DNA from: an uncultured Clostridia bacterium
GTDB taxonomy: Bacteria > Bacillota > Clostridia > Christensenellales > UBA1242
Direction of reading: 5' to 3'
Length of the DNA stretch: 40,267 nucleotides
NCBI GenBank assembly: GCA_947631875.1
Contig: CANRMV010000001.1
Location: 1 to 40,267 of the forward strand
In this document: one piece after another, positions 12,178 to 40,139 of the stretch
Layout of the letters: each line of letters opens with the position of its first letter
How positions within the stretch are numbered: the stretch's first letter is position 1
Notes under the pieces: model-generated
What the model was told of the DNA's origin: nothing
Databases searched by the model: none
The model's input: only the letters and a program-made list of their open reading frames with translations
Program-made: the position numbers and the translations under genes

Positions 12178-12198
12178 GAAAATCGGAGAACAAAAACT

Positions 12199-20831: not shown

Positions 20832-21571
20832 TATTTCTCCTTTTTGTTGCTGGCTTTGGAGTTGGTGTTTTGTTCTCCAATTTCTGCAATTTTTTCATTT
20901 TTATCAATTTTTTGCACATTTTTTTGCGTTTTTTGAGTGTTTTTTTGCACATTTTCTGTTTTTTGAGAATTTTTTAACGCCTCATTGGTTGCAATTTCTT
21001 GTGCAACTTTTTCTTGTTTCTTGGTTTCTTTTTTGTTTATAAGTTTCAGTTGTTGCTCATATGCCAAATTGTATTTTTCTTCTAAACCGTCAAACAATTT
21101 GTCAAAATCCACCTTATCTTCAAACAGCACGTCCATACATCTGCCAAGCACGGGATTGACATTAAAGCATTCGCGATAATATTCAACCTCATCCGCCTCG
21201 TTTGTTTTAAAATCTTTAAGCATTATGTCAAACAAATCCTTCCTTATGTTGAAATACACCAAAACGCGCATGCCAAACTCTTTTGAGCAATATTTTTCAA
21301 AAGGATGATGTTTTATCACATACTGACAGTGTTTTAATCCGTTTTTGAACATTTTTTTTATGTTTTTCTTTTCTTGACCAGCAAAAAAAGGCATAACCGT
21401 TTCATCTTTCATTTGTTCAAGAAGCAAAAGTTCTGTCATGTTTTGTTCGGTTATAACAAAACCTTCTGGCAGAGGACTGTACCTTGTCAGTTTAAAAAGT
21501 TTTCCAAGACGCCTGTTTATGATGTTCAAAAAATTATAGACATCATAATAATTTCCCACTATTTTTTTCAT
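20831..21571 (-). CDS. hypothetical protein with K/N/Q-rich heptad C-terminal tail; leaderless; 1-nt stop/start overlap with the ABC-F gene
   Basis: The ATG at 21569-21571 lies 6 nt after a consensus promoter. The stop overlaps the ABC-F start in TAATG. No recognisable domain. The tail reads QKNTQKT QKNVQKI DKNEKIA. Confidence 0.6.
   Translation of the reverse strand: MKKIVGNYYDVYNFLNIINRRLGKLFKLTRYSPLPEGFVITEQNMTELLLLEQMKDETVMPFFAGQEKKNIKKMFKNGLKHCQYVIKHHPFEKYCSKEFGMRVLVYFNIRKDLFDIMLKDFKTNEADEVEYYRECFNVNPVLGRCMDVLFEDKVDFDKLFDGLEEKYNLAYEQQLKLINKKETKKQEKVAQEIATNEALKNSQKTENVQKNTQKTQKNVQKIDKNEKIAEIGEQNTNSKASNKKEK
20890..20975 (-). repeat. array of about 9 helically phased A-tracts (T-tracts on the + strand)
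   Basis: T4-7 runs start at 20890, 20898, 20908, 20919, 20929, 20940, 20952, 20959 and 20970, a spacing of mostly 10-11 nt. Confidence 0.8.
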
Positions 21572-21577
21572 AATTTT

Positions 21578-21606
21578 ATTATAACCAAATTCCAACAATT
21601 TGTCAA
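21578..21606 (-). promoter_or_regulatory. consensus sigma70 promoter driving a leaderless transcript
   Basis: The minus strand reads TTGACA (21601-21606), 17-nt spacer, TATAAT (21578-21583), then 6 nt and the ATG. Confidence 0.65.
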
Positions 21607-21663
21607 CACAAAATAAATTGTAAAAAATTAAATTTGCAAATTTTGTTTTTATTCGTATTTTGC

Positions 21664-21693
21664 TTGCTTAAAAATATTTAAAAGTTGTATTAT
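21664..21693 (+). promoter_or_regulatory. candidate promoter of the giant gene
   Basis: TTGCTT (21664-21669), 18-nt spacer, TATTAT (21688-21693), in an AT-rich 200-nt divergent intergenic region. This is a weak call. Confidence 0.3.
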
Positions 21694-21809
21694 ATATATG
21701 AGGAAAAAAATAATAAAAAAATATTTTTTAATTCCTTAATTTTGAATTTTTAGTCTAATTTTCGCAGACAATATTTTTGATTTCTCAGGACTAAAAAAAT
21801 GGGGTGTTT

Positions 21810-24800
21810 ATGAAAAGAAAACGTGGCGTCCTAAGTTTGTGGGCAACACTAGCCTTAGTGTTTGTCGCATTTGTTGCAGTGGCGGGTGCAACAGTTTTAG
21901 CTTTGTTCCTTATGGGCAGGTTCTCAAACAATGGTGTTGCGCCAGGCGACGATTTAACTTTTGTTATGACGGGTGGTCTTGGTCACACAGCAGATGTTGA
22001 CGAAGATGGCGGCCCTGTTTTTTACATATCTGAGGACAGTTTCTTTCAAGTGCAAACGGGAGTTGCGGATGTAACGGAAAAAGATTTGAGGCTTTACTTT
22101 GACAACAGCCTGCAAGAAGATGTTGTCTCTCAGCCTGGATACATAACCGACGGCATAATTATTGTGAAAGAGCGTGCCAAAATTGGAGAAAGAATTGAAG
22201 TTAAACTTGCACAAGATGTGGATCATGAAGGATTCCCAAAAGGCGGCATTTCCACACTTTATGTTGGCTCACCAACCAATCCAGACAGTGTGACTGACCG
22301 ACACTGCAAAATTGTTGTGGATGTTCCTGTTGATAAAAGCGGATTTTCAGTGAGCATAAACGGACAAACAGGAAATGAGCAAAATGTGGTTGTCAGCGTT
22401 CCATCCTTTGAAATAGTGCCAACATTCACCCCACAAAAAAGTGGATACTATTTTGCAGATAGCAACAAACCAAGATTGGTGTTTTTTGATATTTTGTCTC
22501 AAAAGATAACACAGGAAGAAGGTTTTGCTTACAATGAATTCAAACCAACAGCCGTTACAAGTGGAACTGCGGAAGTTGTTCGATATTACACATTTAAAAA
22601 CTCCGAATATCAAAGGCAGTTTTTAACTGAAAGAGAACTGACGGAAAATGATGATCGAGAAAAATTAAACGAGGCGTTTCAAGATTACAGATTGGAGCAT
22701 GGCGACCAAGTTGTATTTAATGATGTAAACATATCAATTCAAGGCGTTTCGGTGACGGGCGTTAAAGTTGAGCCTTCCACAACTCTTTCGTTGAGGCTTG
22801 ACAAAAACTTCCGCCTCACCACAAAAAGACCATCTGTCGGACAGGTGGATTTTGGAACATTGAATGTTTCCATTCAACAAGGCAATGAAGCGGCAACACA
22901 ATATGTGAATGCTTTGTATGCAAATCTTGGAATAAAAATTCCAACAGTGGAGCAAGATGGCGTTTTACAAATTCTTCCAGGCTTCCAAATTAGCGGCGGA
23001 AACGTGATTGAAGTTGACAAAACCACTTGGGCCGTTTCCAAGCCAAAAGCAATGACGTTTGAAGATATAAACAACATCTTAAAAGGCGATGGCGGCAAAA
23101 ACAAAATGTTCTATTGCTTGCCATACACAAGAAACATTGTTTCGTGTGATGATTATTATTGGAATATATCTTCTGAAACCACACTCACACAACAAACTCT
23201 CAGCGTAAACTTTTTTGAAGAAAAATCAGGCGGATGGCAAGCGTTCTTCAAATTTAATGATGAAACAGAAACAAAGAAAGATGCAGAACAAACATTTACA
23301 ATAAGTGCATCTTTGCCAGCACAAAAAGAGCCAGAATGGAAAGATAGCAACGCAATTTCGCTGACAATAACGGCAAGTGCAAGTTCTGATGCAGGAAACT
23401 CTGCGCGGGTGAATTTGCCATCGCTTATGTCGGAGATTGATAAGGACAATGTTTACAGAACGATAAGATATTTCCTTGTTAAGCCAACAGGAGAACCAGA
23501 AAAAGTTAATGATTTTGACCCAACCATTTATTTTGACCAAATAGATTCAGGCAAAACTTACACGAAATATTACACAGATGGCGAGGAAGAAGGTGCTGAC
23601 ATTTCAATATCTGGGGTTTCAGCAACAAGTGGCGGCTACACGCTTTACGAATTCACGGGAAACTATTTAATTGCAAAGAAAGAGTTGCCACTTGGCTTGG
23701 AATTTAATATAGTTGCACTTCTTGTTAGAACTGACGCGGCTGGAAATGTGGTTAAAGACGGTGACGGGCGCTATCAAGTTATCAACAACAGTGCAAGCAA
23801 AATTATCACTGTTGAAAGCACACTTTCAATAGAAAACATGGCACCAACTTTTGAAGTGACTGACGGAACATATGGAAAACGAATCAATGGTGAAGGCGAG
23901 GAAGACCCAAACGGAGATTATTACATTCCATCAATGATTAGAGACCCAGAAGTTCCATCTCAACAAAAAGATATTTTGAAATTTAAGTTGACTTTGTCAG
24001 ATGTCACAGAAATTCCACCAGTAAACGATGACAAAATTATTAATGCGTTCACCAATGGCAAAGCCGGAGTGGAAGAGAATGGAGTTGCTTGGCTCACTGT
24101 TGTGGCTATGGATCAAAGCCGAACTCATGACCTAGATTGCATTGAACTTATTTCATTGTCCAGAGTTGAACCATCTCCTGACGCTCATGAAATTGAATAC
24201 ACGGGAACATTTAGCATAAACGAAACGAAATTTTCCGCATTAACTGACGGCATAGACAGCGGAACTTACATCGTTTTGGAACTTAGATACTATGACGGAA
24301 GAGAAGTTTTAACAAAAGCCATCACAGACGAAAACGGAGTTGATCATTTTTATGTTTATTATCAACAACCTCAAAGCATTGAATTTAACAATCCAGGAAC
24401 GGCATATGAATCAGACTCACCTTATGTTTCAGTTACTGTTGATGCAGGAAAACTGACAATCACTTGGGGAAAACAAGAAGGCGGCACTCCACAACCGGTT
24501 AACACGGTGACAGACCTTCAAAAGCTTATATCTTTCACCTTGCTGGACAAATTTGGGCGAACGATAGAGCCTCAACTTGGCTACAAACTCAGGCTGGATG
24601 AAATTCCAGAAGATGGAGAAAGTTCAAATTTGTTGTCCTTTAATGAAGATAGGACAAACATTGGTCAAACATTCAGAGCCACATCTCTCAGCGGAGAAAC
24701 AACAACTTTGGTTGCGCGCGTTGTTGATGCCAGCGGAAATTATCAAACAAAAAATGGCACAGAAAGTGGCGACCAAATAAGATGCAGCACAACAATCAAA

Positions 24801-27800
24801 TTCTTTGTAAAGAGTGTTGGGCTTAAAACAATCAAAAGAGATGTATCCACAGGAACAGACAAGGATTTGCAAGAATATGACGACTTGCAAACAGTTCTTG
24901 CGGCAAGTATGGTGGAAGTTAGAAAATATGTGACAAAAGGCACATCGTTTGCCTTTGCAGATTTGGTTGAATTCTACACATCTTCAAATGAGGACAAGGC
25001 GGTTGATATTAAAGTTGGCGTAAGTGCACCATTCTACAACAATTTGTTAGATAGTCAAAAAACAGATTTGGGCAAAATGCTTACATTTGATTCTGATGTG
25101 AAGAACTTTGGATTGCTTTCCAATATAACCTCTATCACTTTCAATCATCCATTCGGTGAGGACACATTTATTGATTTTATTGTGACAGATGACGGAGCAA
25201 ATTTGTTCTCAATCACTTTGAGGTTGCACATTTTGTCCAATATAACAATGGCTCCATCCTTTGACACCTATTCATCCAAAGAGCACATTCCTTCTCAATA
25301 TTTGGTTAGAAGCACAGAATATGTAAACGCATCACCTGTGTTTGCTGGCGCACAACTTTTGTTTAAAGATTACATGCCTTTGAGTGCAAGGAATGGCGGG
25401 CTGTCTGTTTCATATTCTTGGACAGATGACAACAGTATGTTTATAACAAATATGCAAGGTGTGGAAGAGTGGAAAAAAGACACAGATCCAGGCATTCAAG
25501 TTGACGTTCAATATGAATTCGGTCGCGCTGAGTTTACAGTTTATTATGGTGTTGAATCTCAATATGCACTTCATCAAACAATAACCTTGTATGTTAACCC
25601 AGATGTTCTTGTGGTTAAGTACTTAACAAAAGCAAATGAAAATCCATATGTAAACCTTGAAGGATATTTTGGTGGCCACGAAGAGACAGGCAAAGTGTTT
25701 GGGGTTTATAGATTAACAGACTATATTGAAAAAGGCACGCTTGGCGATGAATTGGAATTGGATTATTCTCTCAATTATACAGGCGAAGAGGGATCTCAAT
25801 TCATTGCAATGAGTGACGAAGACAAATATGTTTTTGTTGGAAACAAGAACCTAGACCTTTATTATGGACAAAAGATAACACAAGAGTTTGGTTTTGCTGT
25901 TTCGGTTTCCTCTGAACCTGGAAGCCAAACAACTTCATCTGCTCTTGAAGGGGCAACAATAACAATGATTGGTGGAGATCTGGGAGAGATTTCACTTGGC
26001 AAAGAGGGAAATCCAATTCAAATTGCCATCGACTTTGGCATAGATCAAAATGAAGGTGAAAGCATCGTTTTCCAAGCAAAAGGTGGAGACACAAGCGGTG
26101 CACTTGCGCCTGTTGTTAAATACAATAAGGACGGGCAAACACAAACTTATGTTGTGATTGAGCCACCATCAGGAAATAACGATGGCTATTATGCAGCAAA
26201 TGGTTATAAAATTTCGTCAGCACAAGGAATTTTAAGTGTTTCAGGGCAAGGAAATCTTGCTCACTTAATTGTTGGCAATCCACCATTTTTGAGTGTTGAC
26301 GGAAATAGTTTTGTTGCAACAAAAACTTTCACAGACAGCAAAGACGGCACGCTCACTATTTCCTTAACTGTTAATGTTATTGTAACGGGCATGGGAAAAG
26401 ACAATGTTTATTACACCAATGATTACACAAATAATGAAAGTGGTGTTGACAAAAAATTCAATGTATTCACCAATGAGGATAGAAAAGAAATGACATATGA
26501 TGTTCTTATGGGCAGTGGTGAAGGACTTGAAAAAGAGAAGGTTTATCAAACTCTCAAAGCGGGACAAGAATACACCATAGTTCACAATTTGAATGGCGCA
26601 GAAACGAGTAAAACTCCTGAGCCTGGCTTCTATTACAACAGTTTTGATGCAAACATTTCTGCTTCTTTGAAAATAGTCAAAGCCACAGCAAACGGCGTTA
26701 CGCAAGATATAAGCGAAGACGGAAAGAGAACAAATCTTGCAACCATTAAAGAGGACAACAAACTTCAAATAAACCATTTGGAAAGCAGTTACACAGAAAC
26801 TTATTTGATTTTGGAACTCACTTTGCAAGAGGCTGGGCTGAACGGAAGAACGTTCACTTGGTATTACAGAATAAAGATTAAGCCAAGTTTCACTGTTGGA
26901 CAACCAACCTATCCTTATGGAGAAAATGGCGAATATCTAGACAAACATTCATCTTATTATAAAGAAGAGACAGACCGCTATGAAATTGACCTGTCTGAAA
27001 CTTTCACATATTCAAACAGCGGACGTCAGGGCGGAACGAGATTTGGAGCCCTCACTTTCAATGAAGAAACGGTTGTCGCAACGCCACAATATGAAATTGC
27101 AAGTGCTTATTTGTCAAAAGAGGCAAATGTTGCACTTGACCCAGCAAATTATGACGAATGTTTTGAAATCAGAGTTGAAAAAGAATTGTTGACAATCAAA
27201 GTTAAAACAGATCAACCGCTCACAATATATCTAAGACAATATTACACGCTTGACGAGATGCGATTGCTTGGCAGCGAACAGAGTTACATTTTGCGCTTCA
27301 ATCAAATGTCCGGCTTTGACCACAGTTTGAGTTATAATTCTGATTATAATCCTGATATAACAAGCAGTAAAAGCGAGCCTCTCACCGCCAAAGACAATGT
27401 TTATGAAGCCGAGTTGGTTCAAACCAAAACGGGCGTGTTCACACCAGACATTCAAAAGAAAGAGGCTGCCGACAGAGTTAGCAACTACCTTGATCTTGAT
27501 GTTTACATCAAGGGCAGTGAGGCCGATTTGAAAGCCGCATTAAAACCTTATGTCACAGTTGAAGCGGGAACAACTTACACTGTTGAAGGCGAAGAAGGCG
27601 GCAAAACTTTTGATGCAACAGCCTCATTCTTTGCAAGCAGCGTTGAGCAAGATGTGGCAACAAGAAATTGGAAGATTGTTGGCGTTGAGCCTGATGCAAA
27701 AACCTATGTGTTCACAGAGACAGAATTTGAAAACGTTTCATACACATATGTTAAAATTGAAAACAATGGTGACGAAAGCGCACCACGCAAACTTCTAACC

Positions 27801-30800
27801 TTTAAAGCACAAGAAACAATCACAAGGGATTATAATTTTGAAGTTGGCGTGTTCAGTGACGAACAAGTTATATTCAAAATAAATCTCACAGTCACAAGCG
27901 TGTATAAATACAAACTAAACACCGAATTTGAGGGTGGCAAAACTTATGACTTCATTGGTGCAAACGGCATTATCAAAGAAATCAACTTGCAAACAGGAGT
28001 TGAGGAATTGAAATTTGATTTGCAAGACAAAACACAGAAAGCCCCATTTGGAAACGACAATGTCACACTTGACAACCTTTTGACAATCGATAATGAAACG
28101 GATAAAAAGATTACTTTTGCCGAACTTTTGGAAGATGTAACATTTACATTTAATGTGTCCATAGAGGAAAAGGTGGGAGAAGCGGTTAAAGTTAAATTCA
28201 CCTTCCCAATAACAATCACGGTTAAGAAAAGTGCAAGCGTTCAAAAGGAATTCACGAATGACCGTTATGAACTTTCTGGCTACACTTTTGAAGTTGGACT
28301 TGAAACGAATTTGACAAACGCCAGCACAAATAAAACCATAAAAGACACATTTGGGCTTACACAACTTGCCCAATTAGATGCTGATGTCAAAAATGGTTAT
28401 GCACTTATGGGCGGGAATTACCCTGTTGAAGACATTTCCATAACGCCAGCAGAAGCATCAAGTGATTTTACACGACAAACACAACAAATGACAATAGGTT
28501 ATTACTTTGATAACATATTAATATTTAATTATGATTTTGAATTTGTTTATTATGTTAACCGCAGTGTAACCCTAACGCCAAACTATCCAGACCCAGACGG
28601 CAACACCAACAACGGAACATTAAACACCGAATATATTGGCACAAATGCGTATGGTGATGGAAGTTATCAATCGGCAACAACACTTTCATTCTTCACCACG
28701 CCAGCAATGTTTGCCAGAGACTCACAAAACAGGGTTGTTCAAGGCTGGACAGACTACTTTATGAGAAGATGGAATGTTGATTGGGATGCTAAATGGAATG
28801 ATGCCCACAAAGATGACGAACCAAAGCCAGAGAAACCACAGCCAGAGGAGCCAACCAACAGCGATGTTGCATTGATATACACAATATCCATAGCAACCAT
28901 AGACACAGGACTTACTGTTTATGCAAATGGAAAAGCATATCCAAACGAGGGGAATTCAACCCTTCTTCAAAACAAAGGTTTCCGAGATGTTGATGCTTTG
29001 AATTTGATGTTCAGATTGGACAGAGAAATTACATCAGCCAAAGTTACTTTCAACATTCAAGTTAATGGCGTATCAACACAATATGTTGTCACAGTTGTTC
29101 AAGGAGATGTGATTAAACTTGTTCAAACTCCAACAAATTACTCTTCATACGAAGGCGCAAATCAAGCCGAAACAATTTATGTTGAGGATTTGAACAAATA
29201 TATCAATGACGATGGCGACACAAAATTATTTGCTCAGAAGCGTCTTGTAACCTACAAATTGCGAGAAAATCAAGTTGGCACCACTTTGTTTGCAAGGTAT
29301 ATTCAAAACAACACAAGTGGACAAGCGGTTGTCATTCAACTAGACACGTCAACATCAGAAAAGGTTTACTTTGACATGGGTCGCAGCCTTGCCAATATGC
29401 GTTTTGATGCAATCTATGGACAAAATTCGAACGGATCAGTGTCTGATAAGAAAGACAATGCTGTTGTGTTTGACACTGAAAACGATGGGCTTATAAAAGA
29501 AACATCCAGACTTACCGCTTATTATTATGAAACAGAAATCATGACGGACATAAGCATTATTCGCCGAAAGAAAACAAATGACGGTTATGAAGATTGGCAA
29601 GCAATTTCTGGCAAGTATGGGACAACAACCGCTGAGGCAATAGAAATAACAAAAGGAGAAAACTATGAACAGTCAGAACAAGGGCTGACAAGTGCTTTGG
29701 GCTATGACAAAACAAACCATGTTGTGAGATACAGTTTTGCAATAGAATATAAAGAATATGACGAAGACGAAACCGAAAACACCATATATTTCTCACCTAT
29801 TGAATACTCAATTCGCGTAACAACCGAACTTTTGGTTACAGGCAACGCAAACACCATTGAGAATAAAACTGATTCACTTGGCAACACAATCAATCCATTA
29901 GACGGATTGCGCATTCAAGAAATTGAGGCAGGCAAAGATCAGAACCTTATGGGTATGACGGGCTTTGGCTTCACAAATGCAAGAACAGGCAAAACAATCG
30001 CACAAATTAATGCTTCCGCAAGAATTGGACTTAAAATTTATGGCTTTGAGGAATGTGCGATTGAGGCAAGCAGCGATGTGCTTACAAATAGTGCATATGT
30101 TTTGCACAATTATCTGACAAATCATTTCATAGGAGACATTTGGTATGAAACAGGGCTGTTGCCACGACATGGCATGGATATTAATGACAACACAGCAGAT
30201 GGCTCTGCGGGCGACAACTACATCATGTATTATGGTGTTGACCAAAAAGACTACACCATCCGAGCGCAACACTGCTCGAATGATGGAAACTATGTTATGA
30301 TAAGAATGCAATACATAGTTAATTGGGGCAGCGAAGATGTCACAGTTACACAAGACAACAACCTCTTGTTTAAAGTTGTTCCAGGCTCAAATATGACAGT
30401 GCAAATAAAAGAGGGTGTAAACTCCACAAGTTATTCTTCAAGTTCACTTGTTGATGAAATTCGCGATGGAAGAACTTACAGGAGCAATGCAAACAATCCA
30501 TACATCTTTGCGATGGGAACAAGTGATCAAGATTTCTATTTGGTTAACGACAACAACACCTCAACCAGCGCAACAGAAATGTCAATCATTAAAGTTCTTA
30601 AAGGCAACAATCAAAGTTATGGTGCAAAAGATTTCACATTCACCTACACGCCAACCAACGGCGAATATAACAACTTTAAAAAATTCGAGGGCACGCTTTC
30701 GGGTTGGACACCAGATCCAAAGGGTTTGGAAACCTCACCAAAGTACACGAGAAAGGATGCCACAGTAAAAGCCACAGCACCTCGTGTTAATCTTGGCACA

Positions 30801-33800
30801 AAGAAGATGTATATCACATTTGAAGATGACTATGGCTACAAAGGCATATTCTATTTCAACATCCAAACCACAGGCATCGAGCCAGCATTTGCTGAAAACA
30901 ATGCACTTGAACTTACTGAGGGCGAGCAATTAACATTCAGCGTTGCATATCAAAATGTTTCTGTTTCCGGCGACGGAAAATCGGATTCGGATGCTGCCCT
31001 TACTGAAACCTCCAAACAATGGGTAACATATGAGGCCTTTGATTACACAAAAGATGCTAAAACGGTAGCAGTGACAGGGCTCCCTGATGGCATTAAAGTT
31101 AATGGGTTAAGAATGATTGCAACTGTGGGCGGACAAGTGTTTACAAAAGAAGCCTTAGCGGAAGATAATAACAGCAAAGACAACTTTAAAGACGCGGAAG
31201 AGGGTGGCAGTTCTTTACTTAGTGGTGGCGCGTATAATAATAAAAGTAAAATTTACATTTGGAGCAAAACAGGAGACGAAACCGAAGAAGGTGATGTTAG
31301 AGGACAAGGTGTAGATCTAGACAAGAACTGGAAACTTGGGCAAGATAAGGAGCCAGGACTTACACTAAAAGAACTTGAAGAGTCAAACACAAAAATCGTG
31401 TTTGAGTTTAGATACACAAAACATATGAAACAAGCGAATGAAAGCAAACAAGTGCCAGGCGATATAACTTCGGGCACAGGCTTGTATACAGCAAAATACG
31501 GGGAAGTTCAATTAAGTCAAACACACACTATTGGCGAAACGCACATTCCAACAAAAGATGAATTGGGAATTACGGGAAACATAACTCCAATAGCAATCAC
31601 AGGAATTGGCGCTTATGCTTATAACAACACGCTGGGAACGCTTGATGAAACCTCTGTTATTAACGCGAAGACCGCTTCTAAATTTATAGGAAACGGCAAT
31701 GAATTTACTGTGAAAGAAGGCAACAAGAAGTATTATGAAGGTGAAATCACAGTTCAAAAAATTGAATTTGTTTTGAAGAGTGATGAAAAAACTCCTGTTA
31801 CGCCAACAACAATAACACCACAAGGAACAGAAACCACACTTTTGGCAGATCCAAACAAGTTCTTTGTGGCAGAGCAAACGCAGGACGGAGGGAGCACTTT
31901 CAAACTTATTCAAGGAAAGGGATATAGTGTAGAAGAAAAGGAAGGAGAAAATATTACAACAGAAGGAACTCAAACCTTCACAGTTCCAGATGTGAAAGGC
32001 TATTTGTATGGCGTGTCAGATCGCATTTCCGGAGTTGAAATGCTTGTCACACTGACAACCAACAACAAAGAATCAGACGACCAAGAAACTCAGGTGCTTA
32101 AACGAGACGTAACAATCAAGAAAAATAATGCAAGTGTGCCATTCTCCAATCTTAATACTCATGATGGAGATCCAATTTCGAAAGACAATGAAGGTTCAAC
32201 TGTTTACAACAACACACTTGAAGTTGTGGTTGATGCTCACACAAAAGGAACAGTCACAATTTTAACAAAAGATAATGGCATATCCGATTCGACATGGACA
32301 AAAGAAACATATGATGTTTCAAATGATGCAGATTTTGCTGTGACAAAATATCTTAAAATTATAGGCGATAATTATTCCTATACAAAAGAAACTATTGGTA
32401 ATGCAAGATTCAAGGTTGAAGCACAAAAAACAAGTACAACAGGCAATATAACGATGCTTTACAACTCTTCGGAATTGGATGAGGAGAATCAAATAGATGA
32501 TTATAATGACCAAATCACCCTTCGCATAAATGACCCATCTGAACTTGGCGGAAACATTAGAGAGAAGGCTTACAAAACTGAAAAACTTTACTTCTTATAT
32601 TATACTACTAGTGTGCAGGGCGAAACGACTGCACGACAATCGGATGAATTATATCGTCAAGAGCCAGAATTTAAGGTTTATCCAAAAATTTCCACTCTTG
32701 TGAATGGTTCAACAATTTCAGTTGATAAATATTTAAGAATTTCCGAAACGGACAAATCGCAATACTATGTAATTCCTTTCCAATCTTGGGCAGAAAATGT
32801 TAAGGTTAAGGATTTTAAAGATGATGAAAATGAAGTGGCATTAAACGGACTTAATGCTTATCAATTCTATTTCGACATCAATGCATATGCCATTGAAGGC
32901 GGAAGTGCGGGTGGTGCTGCATACATCGATGAAAGAGGAACAATAACCACAACCAACTCCTTTAATCCAACAAGTGATGGTATTGCAGTGAATGTTTATG
33001 CCAATGTATCTGGAAACGATGGAATGTATGAAAACGACATTTCTAAGATGGAAAACAAAGATAAGATGTATCTTGGCACTGTTGACTTGGCACTTAGACA
33101 TGTCGATGCCTCTGGCTTTAATAAGATAGCCGATCAAAAGGCGGTATATGACATAATTCAAAGTTCTGTGTGGTCAGAGCAGTTTGTTGCACAATATGAC
33201 AAAATTGAGGCAACAAATAAAACAAATTGGACATCTAGCAACATTTCAAAGATTGTTGAAGAAAATATCACTAATGAAGGCACATTTACAGCAGCGATTG
33301 GCGAAAAAGTTGATTTAAGAAAGATGTTTAAAGATATTGAACTAACCAACGAAACGCCAGGATTTAAGATTACCAACAACAAACATTATCATTTGGTAAA
33401 AATTGATGAAAATTACGTTCCATATAATAATGTTGACTATTACACCTTCACAAACGCCGGGTCCTACACATTAACTATTATGCAAACAGGACGAGAGTCT
33501 GACGCAACATATCGTCGACAACTGTTTACAGTGAATATGATTGTATATTCAAGCGGGACAAGTGCTTTGAAATACACCAGAGTTGTGGAAGACGGCAACG
33601 AATTTAGTTTAAGCACATTAGACACGGCACAATTTGGCGGCGACAAAACCACAGAATGGTTTGTTCTTGACAAGACAACAAATTCGATGACGGATGTTGG
33701 TGGAGATTACACCATTTCCACACAATCTAAATCCGACAACTTTAATTACGGAAGAAATGAACGCTCATTCTTGGCTCAAACAACAGAAGGCTCAACCGTC

Positions 33801-35852
33801 ACAACAAATCTTGTTGATGTTGTGTTCTGGGTTTACAACAACAATGCAAAAGCCAAAACAGATGCATTAAAGAATGATACACAAAATTCGACAACAGACG
33901 GAACATTTGAAATTAATCTCAGAACAAAGCGTGTTTCAACCACACGTGCAGATTACAGATTGTCAAGTTTGTTTGCTCCACAAACAAAACAAGAAACGGT
34001 GGAAGATGTTCAAAAAACATACAACTATTCTTACAGCGTTTACACTTTTGAAAAAGAAAGCGGTTATGACGTGGTGGGAGGAACAACAGGTCAACAAATT
34101 GACATTCAGTCATTGAGTTATGAATCATTTGGCAAAATTGCTCCAAAAACATATGTTGTGGTTGAAAATAGACGTGATACGTCTGGGGTAACCCCACAAG
34201 AGACAATCACAAACTGCTTTGTATATCGTGTTGAGTTCCTTATTAATCAAAACACACAAAATTCCGTTCAAACAGTGAAGAGATCATCCAGAGTTGTCGA
34301 AGGCAAAACAGAAGAATATGTTGCAAAAGAGGATATTAAGACGATACTTCAAAGTGTATTCCATGTTACAACAGCCAATGATTGTTATTTGCGGGATGAA
34401 ATAACGGGAGAACTAAAAGCCATTCAAGATGAAACAGGTCTTAACTCTTACACCTTCACAAGACAATATGTTAAATTGACAAAAGATGCTTCTGGAAAAG
34501 TAACAGGCTTTGAGCAAATACAAATTTTGTTCTACATCTATGACGATGCTGACGGTTCTGATGCAGGCAAAACAAATGACACTCCAACAATCAACATCCA
34601 CACATCGCAAACCACAAGATATTATTTGTCAAATCTTGATGCGTTTGTTAAAAATGAGGCGGCAAAGGCTTTGGAGGGCGCAACTGAACTCACAATTTCA
34701 TATTATGAAATGGGTGAGGACAACATGCCAATGTCACAGCCAACGCCATACATTCCATTGACCGAAAATGTTACAAAACATTTCTATGTTATTGTTAATG
34801 GAAGGTTAAACGGCAGCAATAAGAGTTATTACTTTGATATGACCTTCAATTTTAATGTTGAAGAAGGAATTGCCGGAACCGCAACGCTCAAAAACAAAAA
34901 ACATCATCCGGGAAGTGTAGAGCCTGACAAGATTGAAGGGGATGTGTTAAAAGCAGCAGAGGTTTTGGAAAGTCTTAAAGCAATTTTGGAAGTGCCAGAG
35001 GGCGTGACTGATGCACAACTATATTTCAGCAACAATAACACAATCACGTTCTTTGACGACACAACAAACAAATACATTGCTTTGACAGATGAAGATTTGC
35101 AAAATGGTTTTGTTAACGGCGTTTATGGAATAAGATACACAGAAAACAAAACAACAAATTATGTGTTCACAAACACCAAAATTTACTTCTACGATGTAAC
35201 TAAATTGCCAGCCATCGACAATTTAACAATCGGCTTGCAAAACGCGGACAACAGAACTTTCGAAATGAAAGAACTTGTTTCAACAATAATGAAGATACAA
35301 GAGTTGAATATAACTCCATCAGAAACAGTAGATTACAACTTTTTCAGTTATAGGGAAGTTGTTGGCAGTGGTGCCCAATTCAGCAAAATTGAGGACATCA
35401 GCAAAATGACTGTTGGATTTGGCGAAACCTCTCGCACAATTTTGGTTGGAGTTGAAAAATCTGTCACCAATAACGGCGAAGTGGAAGGTGTTCCAGAGAT
35501 TGAGATAACATATAATTATTATGAATTGACTCTTAAATTCACCGTTCCACTTTCTGCAAACAGGCCAGACCCTATTGAAATTACAAATGATGCAACCGCA
35601 ACTTCTGCTTTCAAAGACAAATTGGTTGAAAATAAGGCTATCACCGCAGAACAAAAAGCGAGTGCAGAGGTTGTGTTCAAATCAGTGACAAATGTAACAG
35701 AGCCAACAACAAGCGGGCTCCAAAAAATTGGTGAGGCGGTTAGTGATAAAGATATTGTTGGGAACACAACCTATTTGGCATATGTAACAATTAAAGACGG
35801 AGAAGAAGAAACAACAACCATTTATAAAGTTTCATTCATTATGGGAGAATAA
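21810..35852 (+). CDS. giant (about 4,680 aa) N-terminally membrane-anchored surface protein of unknown function
   Basis: Uninterrupted frame of about 14 kb. The N-terminus is MKRKRGVLSLWATLALVFVAFVAVAGATVLALFLMG (charged n-region plus hydrophobic span). The remainder is hydrophilic and beta-like, with no repeats or catalytic motifs detectable by eye. Confidence 0.85.
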   Translation: MKRKRGVLSLWATLALVFVAFVAVAGATVLALFLMGRFSNNGVAPGDDLTFVMTGGLGHTADVDEDGGPVFYISEDSFFQVQTGVADVTEKDLRLYFDNSLQEDVVSQPGYITDGIIIVKERAKIGERIEVKLAQDVDHEGFPKGGISTLYVGSPTNPDSVTDRHCKIVVDVPVDKSGFSVSINGQTGNEQNVVVSVPSFEIVPTFTPQKSGYYFADSNKPRLVFFDILSQKITQEEGFAYNEFKPTAVTSGTAEVVRYYTFKNSEYQRQFLTERELTENDDREKLNEAFQDYRLEHGDQVVFNDVNISIQGVSVTGVKVEPSTTLSLRLDKNFRLTTKRPSVGQVDFGTLNVSIQQGNEAATQYVNALYANLGIKIPTVEQDGVLQILPGFQISGGNVIEVDKTTWAVSKPKAMTFEDINNILKGDGGKNKMFYCLPYTRNIVSCDDYYWNISSETTLTQQTLSVNFFEEKSGGWQAFFKFNDETETKKDAEQTFTISASLPAQKEPEWKDSNAISLTITASASSDAGNSARVNLPSLMSEIDKDNVYRTIRYFLVKPTGEPEKVNDFDPTIYFDQIDSGKTYTKYYTDGEEEGADISISGVSATSGGYTLYEFTGNYLIAKKELPLGLEFNIVALLVRTDAAGNVVKDGDGRYQVINNSASKIITVESTLSIENMAPTFEVTDGTYGKRINGEGEEDPNGDYYIPSMIRDPEVPSQQKDILKFKLTLSDVTEIPPVNDDKIINAFTNGKAGVEENGVAWLTVVAMDQSRTHDLDCIELISLSRVEPSPDAHEIEYTGTFSINETKFSALTDGIDSGTYIVLELRYYDGREVLTKAITDENGVDHFYVYYQQPQSIEFNNPGTAYESDSPYVSVTVDAGKLTITWGKQEGGTPQPVNTVTDLQKLISFTLLDKFGRTIEPQLGYKLRLDEIPEDGESSNLLSFNEDRTNIGQTFRATSLSGETTTLVARVVDASGNYQTKNGTESGDQIRCSTTIKFFVKSVGLKTIKRDVSTGTDKDLQEYDDLQTVLAASMVEVRKYVTKGTSFAFADLVEFYTSSNEDKAVDIKVGVSAPFYNNLLDSQKTDLGKMLTFDSDVKNFGLLSNITSITFNHPFGEDTFIDFIVTDDGANLFSITLRLHILSNITMAPSFDTYSSKEHIPSQYLVRSTEYVNASPVFAGAQLLFKDYMPLSARNGGLSVSYSWTDDNSMFITNMQGVEEWKKDTDPGIQVDVQYEFGRAEFTVYYGVESQYALHQTITLYVNPDVLVVKYLTKANENPYVNLEGYFGGHEETGKVFGVYRLTDYIEKGTLGDELELDYSLNYTGEEGSQFIAMSDEDKYVFVGNKNLDLYYGQKITQEFGFAVSVSSEPGSQTTSSALEGATITMIGGDLGEISLGKEGNPIQIAIDFGIDQNEGESIVFQAKGGDTSGALAPVVKYNKDGQTQTYVVIEPPSGNNDGYYAANGYKISSAQGILSVSGQGNLAHLIVGNPPFLSVDGNSFVATKTFTDSKDGTLTISLTVNVIVTGMGKDNVYYTNDYTNNESGVDKKFNVFTNEDRKEMTYDVLMGSGEGLEKEKVYQTLKAGQEYTIVHNLNGAETSKTPEPGFYYNSFDANISASLKIVKATANGVTQDISEDGKRTNLATIKEDNKLQINHLESSYTETYLILELTLQEAGLNGRTFTWYYRIKIKPSFTVGQPTYPYGENGEYLDKHSSYYKEETDRYEIDLSETFTYSNSGRQGGTRFGALTFNEETVVATPQYEIASAYLSKEANVALDPANYDECFEIRVEKELLTIKVKTDQPLTIYLRQYYTLDEMRLLGSEQSYILRFNQMSGFDHSLSYNSDYNPDITSSKSEPLTAKDNVYEAELVQTKTGVFTPDIQKKEAADRVSNYLDLDVYIKGSEADLKAALKPYVTVEAGTTYTVEGEEGGKTFDATASFFASSVEQDVATRNWKIVGVEPDAKTYVFTETEFENVSYTYVKIENNGDESAPRKLLTFKAQETITRDYNFEVGVFSDEQVIFKINLTVTSVYKYKLNTEFEGGKTYDFIGANGIIKEINLQTGVEELKFDLQDKTQKAPFGNDNVTLDNLLTIDNETDKKITFAELLEDVTFTFNVSIEEKVGEAVKVKFTFPITITVKKSASVQKEFTNDRYELSGYTFEVGLETNLTNASTNKTIKDTFGLTQLAQLDADVKNGYALMGGNYPVEDISITPAEASSDFTRQTQQMTIGYYFDNILIFNYDFEFVYYVNRSVTLTPNYPDPDGNTNNGTLNTEYIGTNAYGDGSYQSATTLSFFTTPAMFARDSQNRVVQGWTDYFMRRWNVDWDAKWNDAHKDDEPKPEKPQPEEPTNSDVALIYTISIATIDTGLTVYANGKAYPNEGNSTLLQNKGFRDVDALNLMFRLDREITSAKVTFNIQVNGVSTQYVVTVVQGDVIKLVQTPTNYSSYEGANQAETIYVEDLNKYINDDGDTKLFAQKRLVTYKLRENQVGTTLFARYIQNNTSGQAVVIQLDTSTSEKVYFDMGRSLANMRFDAIYGQNSNGSVSDKKDNAVVFDTENDGLIKETSRLTAYYYETEIMTDISIIRRKKTNDGYEDWQAISGKYGTTTAEAIEITKGENYEQSEQGLTSALGYDKTNHVVRYSFAIEYKEYDEDETENTIYFSPIEYSIRVTTELLVTGNANTIENKTDSLGNTINPLDGLRIQEIEAGKDQNLMGMTGFGFTNARTGKTIAQINASARIGLKIYGFEECAIEASSDVLTNSAYVLHNYLTNHFIGDIWYETGLLPRHGMDINDNTADGSAGDNYIMYYGVDQKDYTIRAQHCSNDGNYVMIRMQYIVNWGSEDVTVTQDNNLLFKVVPGSNMTVQIKEGVNSTSYSSSSLVDEIRDGRTYRSNANNPYIFAMGTSDQDFYLVNDNNTSTSATEMSIIKVLKGNNQSYGAKDFTFTYTPTNGEYNNFKKFEGTLSGWTPDPKGLETSPKYTRKDATVKATAPRVNLGTKKMYITFEDDYGYKGIFYFNIQTTGIEPAFAENNALELTEGEQLTFSVAYQNVSVSGDGKSDSDAALTETSKQWVTYEAFDYTKDAKTVAVTGLPDGIKVNGLRMIATVGGQVFTKEALAEDNNSKDNFKDAEEGGSSLLSGGAYNNKSKIYIWSKTGDETEEGDVRGQGVDLDKNWKLGQDKEPGLTLKELEESNTKIVFEFRYTKHMKQANESKQVPGDITSGTGLYTAKYGEVQLSQTHTIGETHIPTKDELGITGNITPIAITGIGAYAYNNTLGTLDETSVINAKTASKFIGNGNEFTVKEGNKKYYEGEITVQKIEFVLKSDEKTPVTPTTITPQGTETTLLADPNKFFVAEQTQDGGSTFKLIQGKGYSVEEKEGENITTEGTQTFTVPDVKGYLYGVSDRISGVEMLVTLTTNNKESDDQETQVLKRDVTIKKNNASVPFSNLNTHDGDPISKDNEGSTVYNNTLEVVVDAHTKGTVTILTKDNGISDSTWTKETYDVSNDADFAVTKYLKIIGDNYSYTKETIGNARFKVEAQKTSTTGNITMLYNSSELDEENQIDDYNDQITLRINDPSELGGNIREKAYKTEKLYFLYYTTSVQGETTARQSDELYRQEPEFKVYPKISTLVNGSTISVDKYLRISETDKSQYYVIPFQSWAENVKVKDFKDDENEVALNGLNAYQFYFDINAYAIEGGSAGGAAYIDERGTITTTNSFNPTSDGIAVNVYANVSGNDGMYENDISKMENKDKMYLGTVDLALRHVDASGFNKIADQKAVYDIIQSSVWSEQFVAQYDKIEATNKTNWTSSNISKIVEENITNEGTFTAAIGEKVDLRKMFKDIELTNETPGFKITNNKHYHLVKIDENYVPYNNVDYYTFTNAGSYTLTIMQTGRESDATYRRQLFTVNMIVYSSGTSALKYTRVVEDGNEFSLSTLDTAQFGGDKTTEWFVLDKTTNSMTDVGGDYTISTQSKSDNFNYGRNERSFLAQTTEGSTVTTNLVDVVFWVYNNNAKAKTDALKNDTQNSTTDGTFEINLRTKRVSTTRADYRLSSLFAPQTKQETVEDVQKTYNYSYSVYTFEKESGYDVVGGTTGQQIDIQSLSYESFGKIAPKTYVVVENRRDTSGVTPQETITNCFVYRVEFLINQNTQNSVQTVKRSSRVVEGKTEEYVAKEDIKTILQSVFHVTTANDCYLRDEITGELKAIQDETGLNSYTFTRQYVKLTKDASGKVTGFEQIQILFYIYDDADGSDAGKTNDTPTINIHTSQTTRYYLSNLDAFVKNEAAKALEGATELTISYYEMGEDNMPMSQPTPYIPLTENVTKHFYVIVNGRLNGSNKSYYFDMTFNFNVEEGIAGTATLKNKKHHPGSVEPDKIEGDVLKAAEVLESLKAILEVPEGVTDAQLYFSNNNTITFFDDTTNKYIALTDEDLQNGFVNGVYGIRYTENKTTNYVFTNTKIYFYDVTKLPAIDNLTIGLQNADNRTFEMKELVSTIMKIQELNITPSETVDYNFFSYREVVGSGAQFSKIEDISKMTVGFGETSRTILVGVEKSVTNNGEVEGVPEIEITYNYYELTLKFTVPLSANRPDPIEITNDATATSAFKDKLVENKAITAEQKASAEVVFKSVTNVTEPTTSGLQKIGEAVSDKDIVGNTTYLAYVTIKDGEEETTTIYKVSFIMGE

Positions 35853-35855
35853 TAG

Positions 35856-37307
35856 ATGCTGGATGTTTGGTTTTGGGTGTTTATCGCCTACATTAGTTTA
35901 AACTTTTTGCTGTTTCTATTCATGGTGTTTTTGGAACGCAAAAAAATTTCAAGCGTTATCAGTTGGACAACAATCATCACAATTTTGCCTTTTGTGGGCT
36001 ACATCCTTTACATTTGTTTTGGAAGCGGACTGTCCTTTCGTGTTAAACGAATGATTTCGCATCACAAATTGTATGAGGTGGGCTATGACGAGGCAATCAA
36101 CAAATATATGATGGGCTCGGACAGCGAACTTGGCAAGTTGGTGCAAAATGAAGGGCTGATTAAGTGTTGCTACAATTATGGCGCAACACTTTGCCCTTAC
36201 AATGAGGTTAAAATTTTTGTCAACGGGCCGGACAAACTTGAAGCGCTGGCAAAGGACCTTGAAAATGCAAAACAAAGCATAAACATTGAGTATTACATTT
36301 TTGCAGACGATGAAACGGGCTCGCGAATAATGGACATTTTGATTAAAAAAGCCAAAGAAGGTGTGAAAGTAAAATTGATATACGACAGCATTGGTTGCCT
36401 GAAAGCCCCAAGACGCTTTTTTAGAAAATTGACCAAAGCGGGCGGCGAAGTTGCAGAATTTTTCCCACCTTTTGCACATATTCGTTTGATAAATTTGAAA
36501 CTCAATTACAGAAATCACAAAAAAATTGTGGTTGTTGACGGAAAAATTGCCTACACGGGCGGAATAAATTTGCGAGATGACCACATGGGCAAAGAGGAAA
36601 AACTTTCGCCTTGGCGAGACACGCATTTGAGAATTGAGGGAGCGGGGGTTTATCCGCTTCAAAACATTTTCTTAAACGATTGGAGATATGTTAAAAAAGA
36701 AAATTTCACTTCGGGCAAATATATCAATGATGGGCTTTTTCCTGTGCCATCAGTGACGGGCGATGTTTCGCTGCAAGTTGTCACATCTGGGCCGGATAGC
36801 GACATTCAAAGCATAAAAGAGGTTTTCATAAAAATGATAACCAACGCCAAAAAAGAAGTTTTAATCCAAACGCCATATTTCATTCCTGACACATCTTTCA
36901 TGACGGCACTTAGGATTGCACTTGCAAGTGGGGTTAAGGTTAAAATTATGCTGCCAAATAAGCCAGACTACAAAACAATTTTTTGGGTTTCGCTTTCCTA
37001 TTTGAAGGACATTGTGGAACTTGGCGCGGAGGCGTTTTTGTATGACGGATTTTTGCACAGCAAAGCGCTTGTTGTGGATGACAATGTTCTGTCAATAGGA
37101 ACTTGCAATCTAGACCACCGCAGTTTTGGGCTTAACTTTGAGGACACAGTGATTATGTATTCCAAAGAACTGAATGCGGAATATAAAGCCTATTACAAAC
37201 AAGACTTGAAACGTTGCATGAGTGCCGATGTGAAATATTTCAAAAAGAAAAAGTGGTTGACAAAATTTGCGCAAGCAGTATTCAGATTGTTTTCACCAAT
37301 TTTATAA
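35856..37307 (+). CDS. cls: cardiolipin synthase (PLD superfamily, two HKD motifs)
   Basis: Two N-terminal TM helices. HKD motifs HKKIVVVD...GGINL and HSKALVVDD...GTCNLDHRS. The SD GGGAGAA lies inside the giant gene's 3' end, and the ATG lies 3 nt after its stop. Confidence 0.9.
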   Translation: MLDVWFWVFIAYISLNFLLFLFMVFLERKKISSVISWTTIITILPFVGYILYICFGSGLSFRVKRMISHHKLYEVGYDEAINKYMMGSDSELGKLVQNEGLIKCCYNYGATLCPYNEVKIFVNGPDKLEALAKDLENAKQSINIEYYIFADDETGSRIMDILIKKAKEGVKVKLIYDSIGCLKAPRRFFRKLTKAGGEVAEFFPPFAHIRLINLKLNYRNHKKIVVVDGKIAYTGGINLRDDHMGKEEKLSPWRDTHLRIEGAGVYPLQNIFLNDWRYVKKENFTSGKYINDGLFPVPSVTGDVSLQVVTSGPDSDIQSIKEVFIKMITNAKKEVLIQTPYFIPDTSFMTALRIALASGVKVKIMLPNKPDYKTIFWVSLSYLKDIVELGAEAFLYDGFLHSKALVVDDNVLSIGTCNLDHRSFGLNFEDTVIMYSKELNAEYKAYYKQDLKRCMSADVKYFKKKKWLTKFAQAVFRLFSPIL

Positions 37308-37335
37308 ACAATTTTATGTTCAATTCAAAATCAAA

Positions 37336-37363
37336 AAGGTGCTGTATAAAAAGCGCCTTTTTT
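37336..37363 (+). terminator. intrinsic terminator after cls
   Basis: Stem AAGGTGCT (37336-37343) / AGCGCCTT (37352-37359) with one G-U pair, then a T-run to 37363. Confidence 0.6.
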
Positions 37364-38860: not shown

Positions 38861-38890
38861 AAAAAAGAGCCTATTCTATGGGCTCAATTT
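38861..38890 (-). terminator. intrinsic terminator overlapping the collagen-like gene's stop codon
   Basis: Stem GAGCC (38867-38871) / GGCTC (38881-38885). On the minus strand it is followed by a U6 run (A-run 38861-38866 on the + strand). Confidence 0.5.
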
Positions 38891-40093: not shown

Positions 40094-40109
40094 ATAGTAC
40101 TCCATTTTC

Positions 40110-40139
40110 AATATATGAGAACATTTTTAAAATTGCCAA
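40110..40139 (-). promoter_or_regulatory. candidate promoter of the collagen-like gene
   Basis: The minus strand reads TTGGCA (40134-40139), 18-nt spacer, TATATT (40110-40115). Confidence 0.35.

Follow-up and report, generated by a model that had tools for sequence, protein, structure and literature searches.

The window analysed here, a 40,267-nucleotide stretch of DNA from an uncultured gut Clostridia bacterium, carries on its plus strand a single reading frame of 14 kb for a giant protein, which is preceded by a divergent regulatory region and followed by the cardiolipin synthase gene, cls (Table 1). The coordinates originally predicted for this gene are right, because a Shine-Dalgarno-like GGGG run precedes the ATG at 21810 and the gene call of an ortholog, described below, begins at the equivalent ATG. 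An alternative in-frame GTG start is present at 21804, 5′ of this ATG, and the ortholog contig keeps an equivalent GGAGTG upstream of its start. The putative plus-strand promoter would give the giant gene a 5′ leader of ~115 nt.

The cls gene starts 3 nt past the stop codon of the giant gene, with its GGGAG ribosome-binding site located within the last codons of the latter, and the spacing is the same in the ortholog contig. The best reading of this arrangement is that the two genes are co-transcribed. Scanning the window for Rfam families and tRNAs gave no match. Repeats that might form an invertible promoter or support phase variation upstream of the giant gene were also considered and dropped, as the region holds only AT-rich, low-complexity inverted repeats.

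Table 1. Features of the giant gene and its surroundings, with positions in the window.
Feature	Position	Strand	Basis or remark
Perfect sigma-70 consensus of the upstream operon	21606-21578	-	Promoter scan
Divergent intergenic/regulatory region	21599-21809	.	Promoter scan and sequence
Putative promoter of the giant gene	TTGCTT 21664-21669; TG-TATTAT 21686-21693	+	18 nt spacer; reading of the sequence, no tool match
Shine-Dalgarno-like GGGGTG	21801-21806	+	GGGG run 5 nt 5′ of ATG 21810
Giant open reading frame	21810-35852	+	4,680 aa, 521 kDa, pI 4.6; uninterrupted
Basic n-region MKRKRG, then hydrophobic span of ~29 residues (aa 7-36)	span 21828-21917	+	Kyte-Doolittle scan
Pro/Glu/Lys-rich linker, ...DAHKDDEPKPEKPQPEEPTNSD	28773-28859 (aa ~2322-2350)	+	Sole obvious low-complexity linker (translation)
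Stretch with a third, distant relative	32847-33689 (aa 3680-3960)	+	Only such stretch; two beta-sandwich-like units in the AF2 model
Cardiolipin synthase, cls	35856-37307	+	Pfam (PLDc_2 x2, PLDc_N)
Intrinsic-terminator-like hairpin and T-run	37333-37362	+	11-bp stem, 4 GC pairs, T-rich tail; closes the giant-cls unit

Integrity of the giant gene

At 38% GC, and with a stop frequency of ~0.06 per codon, the estimated probability that 4,680 codons contain no stop is ~e^-290. A rabbit-gut MAG, GCA_947626155.1 ('Lapin-008 bin78', 'uncultured Clostridia bacterium'), encodes in an independent assembly a collinear ortholog of 4,660 aa that is about 47-49% identical in amino acid sequence, within an identical gene order. 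In addition, an ENA contig matches window positions 20811-22076 at 99.76%, the first 89 codons of the giant gene included. The single uninterrupted frame of the original prediction is open and collinear in an independent assembly, with its 5′ end matched by a further one, and is intact rather than chimeric or split. Judged from these comparisons, the gene is genuine, encodes one product and is no artefact.

Topology, motifs and composition

A Kyte-Doolittle scan gave 19-residue means above 1.6 solely in windows starting at aa 4-21, the next-highest value in the protein being 1.45 at aa 2353. As predicted, there is one N-terminal hydrophobic span and none outside aa 4-39. The KRKR sequence ahead of the span fits the positive-inside rule, and both KRKR and the span of ~29 residues are conserved in the ortholog. 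The span is probably an uncleaved signal anchor of N-in/C-out orientation, and it is on the assumption that it remains uncleaved that the protein has been described as tethered. A conserved small-residue site, A-G-A↓T, in the middle of the span could be recognised by signal peptidase, and cleavage there would release the protein instead of leaving it tethered.

Scans of the protein for LP.[TSA][GANS], HExxH, G....GK[ST], H.K....D, GG.G.D and VENN gave no match, and its C-terminus (...YKVSFIMGE) has no hydrophobic span, which bears out the predicted lack of an LPXTG or other C-terminal anchor and of the HExxH, P-loop and HKD catalytic signatures. Cysteines are indeed few (10 of the 4,680 residues, 0.21%). 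The overall composition is acidic, Cys-poor and rich in Thr, Asn, Val and Tyr, with T, V, Y, I and F together making up 34% of residues.

Repeats, beta content and fold

Four kinds of comparison agree with the prediction that the giant contains no tandem repeats. Self-BLASTP at E<=10 returned the identity match alone, phmmer comparison of 160-aa windows against one another did not rise above block-shuffled controls, hhalign of all 2,311 pairs of 140-column two-sequence profiles reached a top probability of 10%, and neither TRF nor direct-repeat scans turned up anything meaningful in the DNA. Ordinary Ig-like tandem repeats were likewise not detectable by sequence. The predicted beta-rich character is supported by runs of four alternating hydrophobic residues, which number 39 versus 15.0 +/- 4.5 in shuffled sequences, and by a beta hydrophobic moment of 0.935 versus 0.858 +/- 0.016. 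In the region of the Pro/Glu/Lys-rich linker, aa 2301-2400 are 23% identical between the two proteins, and the ortholog is without 14 aa at 2322-2335.

The AF2 model of aa 3680-3960 has a mean pLDDT of 47.8, with blocks of 53-74 over model residues 140-236, and its better-modelled beta-sandwich-like unit corresponds to aa ~3816-3915; the AF2 model of aa 40-1239, made from a two-sequence alignment, was unusable (pLDDT 32). DSSP assigned mostly strands in these models of mean pLDDT 48 and 32. The top Foldseek matches of the aa 3680-3960 model were PKD domains (2e7m, 4u6t), cadherin EC arrays and MpAFP, all at E>=2e-3, and this pLDDT-48 model had no match at E<=1e-3. The models are thus a hint that the modules may adopt an Ig-like or beta-sandwich fold. 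Segmentation into ~40 modules, for which the basis is composition, strand periodicity and one low-confidence 281-aa AF2 model, is not established. A 'G-x-Y-x-L' tyrosine-corner motif was tried as a module marker and dropped, having been observed 5 times against 4.7 expected.

Homology searches

Pfam gave nothing above noise, either with the whole giant or, at E<=10, with ten overlapping segments of 468-508 aa, and a family search with the ortholog returned 0 families. The giant had no match in NCBIfam, PHROGs or PADLOC; PDB sequences compared with the giant and with the two-sequence profile gave noise only (tektin, arabinofuranosidase, E>=0.18); and tblastn of both halves of the protein against plasmids and phages found no match. 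The claim that its family cannot be assigned stands, and these searches linked it to no characterised family of adhesins or S-layer proteins.

An exhaustive HMMER scan of 1.84 billion representatives covered the C-terminal 1,200 aa (aa 3481-4680) and returned three matches, namely the giant, the ortholog and one 261-aa fragment. Residues 1-2200 were covered by word-index searches, in which queries of aa 1-1000 and aa 1001-2200 found nothing; the index evidently holds neither the giant nor the ortholog, so that these are weaker negatives. Residues 2201-3480 were covered by the profile-library, PDB, plasmid and phage searches and by alignment-wide pattern scans of genomes, metagenomes and viral contigs. 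Among GTDB species genomes, a single-sequence scan gave no match and an alignment-based scan recovered the ortholog's own contig alone; JGI metagenome and IMG/VR scans gave no match. Together, the word-based, genome and metagenome scans added only the third, distant relative and the ortholog's contig. An exact-match look-up for other strains by way of ABC-F, GlyRS, cls and a 183-aa protein found none on record. The distribution of the giant, as these sequence searches define it, is restricted.

Divergence between the two genomes

The proteins flanking the giant are far better conserved than the giant itself, ABC-F being 97%, cardiolipin synthase 91% and GlyRS 89% identical between the two genomes. 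Nonsynonymous divergence (dN) is 0.46 for the giant versus 0.03-0.08 for ABC-F, cls and GlyRS and 0.13-0.18 for other neighbours, and its coding sequence is 58% identical in nucleotides versus about 85-90% for the upstream intergenic/promoter region. The dN/dS of the giant is 0.22 (NG86), or about 0.42 against 4-fold divergence, values that are rough in that dS is near saturation (1.0-2.1). Because the 4-fold divergence of the giant is 1.5x that of its neighbours, an older allele or a horizontal replacement, and not rate alone, could account for part of its excess divergence.

Conservation is uneven both among residue types and along the chain. Tyr and Phe (73%), Trp (64%) and Leu (62%) are retained in the ortholog far more often than Gln, Glu, Ser, Asp and Lys (31-38%). 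This preference for aromatic over polar residues, together with the dN/dS, forms the core-versus-surface pattern of a protein that is folded and under selection. Identity decreases towards the C-terminus (Spearman -0.47, p=0.001), with 54% in the first quarter and 41-44% in the others; the first 100 aa, at 68%, have the highest value in the protein, and the last ~180 residues are 26% identical. The giant probably looks like an orphan because its divergence is so great that homology has been lost outside the genus, and on this comparison its orphan status is due to extremely fast evolution and not necessarily to unknown parts.

Discussion

We propose as the probable explanation that the giant is a lineage-restricted, Sec-exported, membrane-anchored envelope fibre of unique beta-sandwich-like modules, co-transcribed with cls, whose surface is diversifying fast. 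The basic N-terminus and the hydrophobic span would act as an SRP/Sec signal anchor that leaves the N-terminus in the cytoplasm, while the remaining ~4,640 residues would be threaded to the outside of the cell. This ectodomain would be a long chain of beta-rich modules that are probably sandwiches of the Ig/PKD/cadherin-like type, each with a different sequence, in which the membrane-proximal base would be the most constrained and the distal C-terminal part the most variable. Such a surface fibre might serve gut attachment, spacing or shielding and might bind mucus, host cells or other cells, with host antibody and/or phage pressing continually on the solvent-exposed residues and thereby driving their divergence. 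Transcription of the giant together with cardiolipin synthase would proceed from the strongly conserved promoter and leader. A bolder proposal, which we consider possible and rather doubtful, is that the giant represents a new class of giant surface fibre, made of ~40 all-unique modules unrelated to catalogued domain families. Some of their folds might be absent from the PDB and the AlphaFold DB, their internal dissimilarity might itself be selected (e.g. against recombinational collapse or inter-domain misfolding), and the fibre might work with cardiolipin-dependent membrane organisation.

A different function within the envelope is conceivable. The Ebh protein of S. aureus is reported to be a membrane-anchored giant in or along the wall, with a role in envelope tolerance, and the present protein might similarly be a component of envelope integrity or architecture rather than an adhesin, lying in or along the wall, contributing to envelope spacing or osmotic robustness, and tied to lipid remodelling through co-expression with cls. 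The tight translational coupling of the giant to cls in both genomes, with a terminator after cls only, would suit such a role, as would the greatest conservation being found in the TM helix and membrane-proximal region and the lack of a recognisable ligand-binding domain. However, nonsynonymous divergence 6-15 times faster than that of the neighbours is not what one would expect of a purely structural component, Pfam finds no wall-binding modules (SLH, CWB2, LysM, SH3b), and the close kinship of the two genomes means that the conserved adjacency of cls weighs little. We regard this alternative as unlikely. It is very improbable that the giant is instead a polymorphic toxin or contact-dependent effector, in which a long stalk would present a hypervariable C-terminal toxin domain. 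The low identity of the last ~180 residues, the least conserved part of the protein, is what such an effector would show, but divergence extends along the whole length with no abrupt switch at a C-terminal boundary, the gene downstream is a cardiolipin synthase conserved at 91% and no variable immunity gene, and Pfam, NCBIfam and PADLOC yielded no VENN, Rhs, LXG, PT-TG or other pretoxin or toxin family match.

The last alternative, that the frame is a pseudogene, results from chimeric assembly or arose by chance and encodes no product, might draw on the fact that the window protein was missing from the output of two tools that could have been expected to return it, and on the frameshift and early stop in the distant relative, which lies on a short Logan contig. 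Nevertheless, ~14 kb are open and collinear in two independent assemblies at 49% identity, a third assembly agrees over the 5′ end at 99.8%, substitutions spare aromatic and hydrophobic residues, dN/dS is below 1, and the DNA has no repeats able to mislead an assembler. This alternative is effectively refuted, and we assign it a negligible probability.

The fibre that we favour belongs to a known kind of protein, within which it forms a new family, and is not a demonstrated new "system". The 'cell-surface system' of the original prediction was overstated, in that the genes around the giant have housekeeping functions (GlyRS, ABC-F, cardiolipin synthase) and only one other genome, a close relative whose gene order should be shared in any case, shows them together with the giant. 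As a rule, giant surface proteins of bacteria can be recognised as stacks of near-identical catalogued repeats. Here, half a megadalton of folded, selected protein lacks any repeat or database signal and is restricted to a single lineage of gut Clostridia at the genus level. With neighbours that are 89-97% identical and a giant that is 49% identical, the locus is a clean case of how fast surface evolution generates "orphans". If the modules are Ig-like, they offer a natural test set for fold detection beyond sequence signal; if they are not, they are a source of new folds. Genes of this size can fill a noticeable share of the coding capacity of a small genome, and in uncultured gut bacteria they probably help to determine interactions with hosts or phages.

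Comparison with known giant surface proteins

The giant resembles SiiE, LapA, MpIBP and Ebh in its similar size class, its acidic and Cys-poor composition and its presumed form of an extended fibre, and its model shows a weak Foldseek likeness to an MpAFP region (5k8g) and to Ig-like arrays. Those proteins consist of tens of near-identical BIg or FIVAR-GA repeats; SiiE, LapA and MpIBP use T1SS/RTX signals, and Ebh has YSIRK and a C-terminal TM segment. Unlike the RTX/T1SS adhesins, which combine C-terminal GGxGxD nonapeptide repeats and a T1SS signal with tandem BIg repeats and an N-terminal retention module, the giant has no GGxGxD motif or repeats, and the window contains no T1SS genes. Unlike Ebh and Mrp, it yields no FIVAR or GA match in Pfam and its sole hydrophobic span is N-terminal, and unlike sortase-anchored LPXTG proteins of the MSCRAMM type it has no C-terminal LPXTG or hydrophobic segment. 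With polymorphic toxins (CdiA, Rhs, LXG, MafB) it shares a variable C-terminus only. PKD and cadherin arrays are the best structural matches of the pLDDT-48 model (2e7m and ColH 4u6t, with TM-target 0.37-0.41, and tandem cadherin EC domains), whereas none of the ten overlapping sub-segments gave a Pfam PKD, Cadherin or Big_* match at E<=10. A calcium motif of the Dx[DN]xDG type occurs only once in the 4,680 aa.

West-Roberts et al. (bioRxiv 10.1101/2023.11.21.568195) have described, from mammalian gut metagenomes, giant proteins of Clostridia that are predicted to lie at the cell surface, and binding of host or prey cells has been suggested as their role. These are built from repetitive recognisable domains (RCC1, Listeria-Bacteroides repeat, YG repeat, dockerin, LRR; 10.1101/2023.11.21.568195), and the giant differs from them in that Pfam detects none of these repeat domains in it. 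Giant4 and Giant5 of Apilactobacillus kunkeei, a host-associated Firmicute, are extracellular proteins of 3,000-8,000 aa with a cleaved Sec signal peptide, 13-51 imperfect repeats and C-terminal DUF5776/SH3b-like wall-binding domains (PMC12863079). A Sec signal peptide, imperfect internal repeats and C-terminal DUF5776 domains mark the A. kunkeei Giant1-5 family as a whole (PMC12863079). In contrast, no repeats were found in the present giant, its N-terminal TM span is the only candidate anchor, and DUF5776 appears in it only as noise (E=1.3, 9.7 bits versus a cut-off of 27). The A. kunkeei proteins are found in one species and its close relatives, have an atypical Asn-rich composition and diversify rapidly (PMC12863079), and the present giant resembles them in these respects as well as in size class.

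Results

The giant gene is real. Its ATG is preceded, at a distance of 5 nt, by a Shine-Dalgarno-like GGGG run, and the gene call for a 4,660-aa ortholog (P0002) begins at the equivalent ATG; the predicted coordinates of the frame are therefore correct. When aa 3481–4680, the part covered by exhaustive sequence search, were scanned with HMMER against 1.84 billion representatives, the matches were the protein itself, the ortholog (E=1e-193) and P0003, a 261-aa fragment of a distant relative (E=2e-5). The ortholog, from contig CANQRC010000013.1 of GCA_947626155.1 ('MAG: uncultured Clostridia bacterium isolate Lapin-008__bin78'), aligns collinearly over the full length at 49% identity, and gene order around it is identical to that of the window: GlyRS(-), ABC-F(-), a 245-aa protein(-), giant(+), the cardiolipin synthase gene cls(+), a DUF975-like membrane protein, a 183-aa protein and a collagen-like protein(-). 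Conservation of cls and the DUF975-like gene beside the giant gene, a point raised with the original prediction, holds in one other, closely related genome. A contig from a third assembly (ENA ERZ27249118) is 99.76% identical to window positions 20811–22076, including the first 89 giant codons. A Logan contig (ERR4832176_195415), 23–27% identical to aa 3534–3663 and 3702–3933 in two frames, is more distantly related and carries a frameshift or an assembly error; its split stems either from misassembly or from the decay of a copy in a third lineage.

Features of the window and of the related Logan contig
Feature	Position	Strand	Remarks
Endonuclease/exonuclease/phosphatase-family gene	364–1176	+	overlaps next ORF
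169-aa ORF	1145–1654	+	without family
M60/enhancin-like peptidase	5371–10044	+	1,557 aa; E=1.8e-30
AAA+ ATPase	10076–12130	+	684 aa; weak IetA/TRIP13 PADLOC matches
WYL/WCX-domain protein gene	12127–13188	+	4-nt overlap with AAA+ ATPase gene
Upstream flanking gene	20831–21571	-	
Giant ORF	21804 (GTG) or 21810 (ATG) to 35852	+	single open frame; 4,680 residues from ATG without stop
Terminator-like hairpin	37333–37362		3′ of cls; good
DUF975-like gene	37382–38227	+	multi-TM product; weak Pfam match (E=0.003)
Collagen triple-helix (GXY) repeat protein	38876–40111	-	non-collagen C-terminal domain
Giant-related segments, Logan contig	8–427 and 522–1181		two reading frames; early end

The protein (521 kDa, pI 4.6; D+E 14.4%, K+R 9.1%) has 10 cysteines among its 4,680 residues. 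The only TM-grade Kyte-Doolittle window is at aa 4–39 (next best 1.45 at aa 2353), and a motif scan of the whole protein found no LPXTG-like, HExxH, P-loop, HKD, RTX or VENN motif. What had been read by eye, namely few cysteines, no further hydrophobic span, no LPXTG anchor and no catalytic signature, is borne out.

The family had been called unassignable, and no library or collection searched gave a credible match. Pfam returned only noise for the whole protein, for ten overlapping segments at E<=10, for the ortholog and for the 261-aa fragment; NCBIfam, PHROGs and PADLOC gave no match; PDB sequences, searched with the protein and with a profile, yielded nothing credible; tblastn against plasmids and phages was negative; and genome, metagenome and viral scans added no relatives to the ortholog, the fragment and the Logan contig. 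Word-index protein searches with segments were also negative, a result of less weight because the index misses even the giant protein and its ortholog, both present in the collection. Coverage of aa 2201–3480 comprised profile libraries, PDB sequences, plasmids, phages and alignment-wide pattern scans.

Internal repetition was absent in four independent tests, in agreement with the predicted lack of tandem repeats. Self-BLASTP at E<=10 gave the identity match alone; phmmer comparison of 160-aa windows with each other was no better (best E 1e-4) than block-shuffled controls (6e-6 to 3e-4); with 140-column profiles of the protein aligned to its ortholog, hhalign reached a maximum probability of 10% over all 2,311 non-adjacent pairs; and TRF and direct-repeat scans detected nothing meaningful in the DNA. 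The proposed beta-rich character was confirmed as a genuine beta-type periodicity, with 39 four-residue alternating-hydrophobic runs versus 15.0 ± 4.5 in shuffles and a raised beta hydrophobic moment. A tyrosine-corner-like motif, tried as a candidate marker of modules, was not enriched.

AF2 gave a mean pLDDT of 32 for aa 40–1239 (two-sequence alignment) and of 47.8 for aa 3680–3960 (three sequences), the latter containing a beta-sandwich-like unit at about aa 3816–3915 (pLDDT 53–74) preceded by a weaker beta unit. Its top Foldseek matches in the PDB were PKD domains (2e7m, ColH 4u6t), tandem cadherin EC domains and MpAFP, none at E<=1e-3 and with TM-scores of 0.15–0.41. This resemblance hints at an Ig-like fold for at least some modules, of about 100–130 aa each; units of that size would fit a total of roughly 40.

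Of all the results, the evolutionary behaviour of the protein is the most informative. Amino-acid identity between the window and the ortholog contig is 97% for ABC-F, 91% for cls, 89% for GlyRS, 80% for the 183-aa protein, 75% for both the DUF975-like and the collagen-like proteins, 72% for the 255-aa upstream protein and 47–49% for the giant. NG86 estimates of dN were 0.46 for the giant versus 0.03–0.08 for housekeeping genes and 0.13–0.18 for other neighbours; dS was near saturation throughout (neighbours 1.0–1.4, giant 2.1), and 4-fold-site divergence in conserved codons was 1.09 versus 0.69–0.71. The excess is thus mostly non-synonymous (omega about 0.2–0.4 at near-saturated dS), and a modest share could be due to an older allele or to codon bias being weaker. 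Conservation was 73% for Y and F, 64% for W and 62% for L, versus 31–38% for Q, E, S, D and K, the pattern expected if folded domains keep their cores and leave their surfaces free. Identity peaks at 67–68% over the 200 N-terminal residues, TM span included, falls to 26% in the last 180 aa and declines from N to C terminus (Spearman -0.47, p=0.001); no segment approaches the neighbours' identity, and hence nothing indicates a recent exchange. The coding sequence (58% nucleotide identity) contrasts sharply with the intergenic region, the putative promoter and the ~115-nt 5′ leader (window 21572–21830, ortholog contig 5806–6070), which are ~85–90% identical. This leader, which contains …TTTTGAATTTTTAGTC.AATTTTCGCAGACAATATT… and matched no Rfam family, might be regulatory.

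A single TAG separates the giant stop codon TAA from the cls ATG, with a GGGAG ribosome-binding site for cls inside the last giant codons and identical spacing at the ortholog locus; together with the hairpin after cls, this junction points to a predicted giant-cls transcription unit. Upstream genes are divergently transcribed, with a perfect sigma-70 consensus. No secretion, sortase or glycosylation genes lie near the giant gene in the window. Besides an F5/8 type C domain and a DUF285/BspA-LRR region, the M60/enhancin-like protein has an N-terminal signal peptide and, at its C terminus, a TM helix with a KKKKKK tail. It is probably a membrane-anchored mucinase, suggests a mucus-associated lifestyle, and shows that the source organism uses simple TM anchoring of large exoproteins.

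Elsewhere in the window, the AAA+ ATPase and WYL/WCX genes may form a defence or regulatory pair, and positions 364–1654, where GC is lowest (~30%), might represent a small island of accessory or defence genes. The collagen-like gene (local GC ~46%, window 38%) may encode a BclA/exosporium-like filament protein. Both flanking genes, DUF975-like and upstream, encode Lys/Gln/Asn-rich low-complexity tails (KNxQK-type) in products 72–75% identical to their orthologs.

Discussion

We propose that the protein would be targeted via SRP/Sec by an uncleaved N-terminal signal anchor, with KRKR inside, and that its acidic, Cys-poor ectodomain of ~4,640 aa would be exported and fold into a chain of beta-rich modules that do not repeat. 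Its conserved base would lie next to the membrane and its most variable portion distally, and the resulting fibre would be an adhesive or shielding surface whose exposed residues diversify fast. We hold this reading, taken whole, to be probable, with appreciable room for doubt. An envelope-architecture protein with a role tied to cardiolipin, whose synthase gene lies directly 3′, is an unlikely competitor. A polymorphic toxin is highly improbable, because the protein lacks a pretoxin motif or domain, no immunity gene adjoins it, and its divergence is diffuse. An artefact, whether an assembly chimera, a pseudogene or a chance ORF, is next to inconceivable for an ORF that is collinear over its full length in an independent MAG and whose 5′ end recurs in a third assembly.

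Fast-evolving orphan surface proteins are an expected phenomenon; what is unusual about the proposed fibre is that its 4,680 aa contain neither repeats nor domains and that its rate contrasts with that of its neighbours. In size and proposed function it resembles the giant Gram-positive surface proteins, which as such are already known. It has no repeats, DUF5776/SH3b, LPXTG or RTX, and so lacks the sequence hallmarks of each family considered; unlike the Ig-type families, it matches no recognised Ig-type HMM, and the giant proteins of Clostridia reported from gut metagenomes are, in contrast, repeat-based (10.1101/2023.11.21.568195). We therefore class it as a new family of a known type. Closest in evolutionary behaviour are Giant4/5 of A. 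kunkeei, which are lineage-restricted, diversifying beta-domain arrays (PMC12863079).
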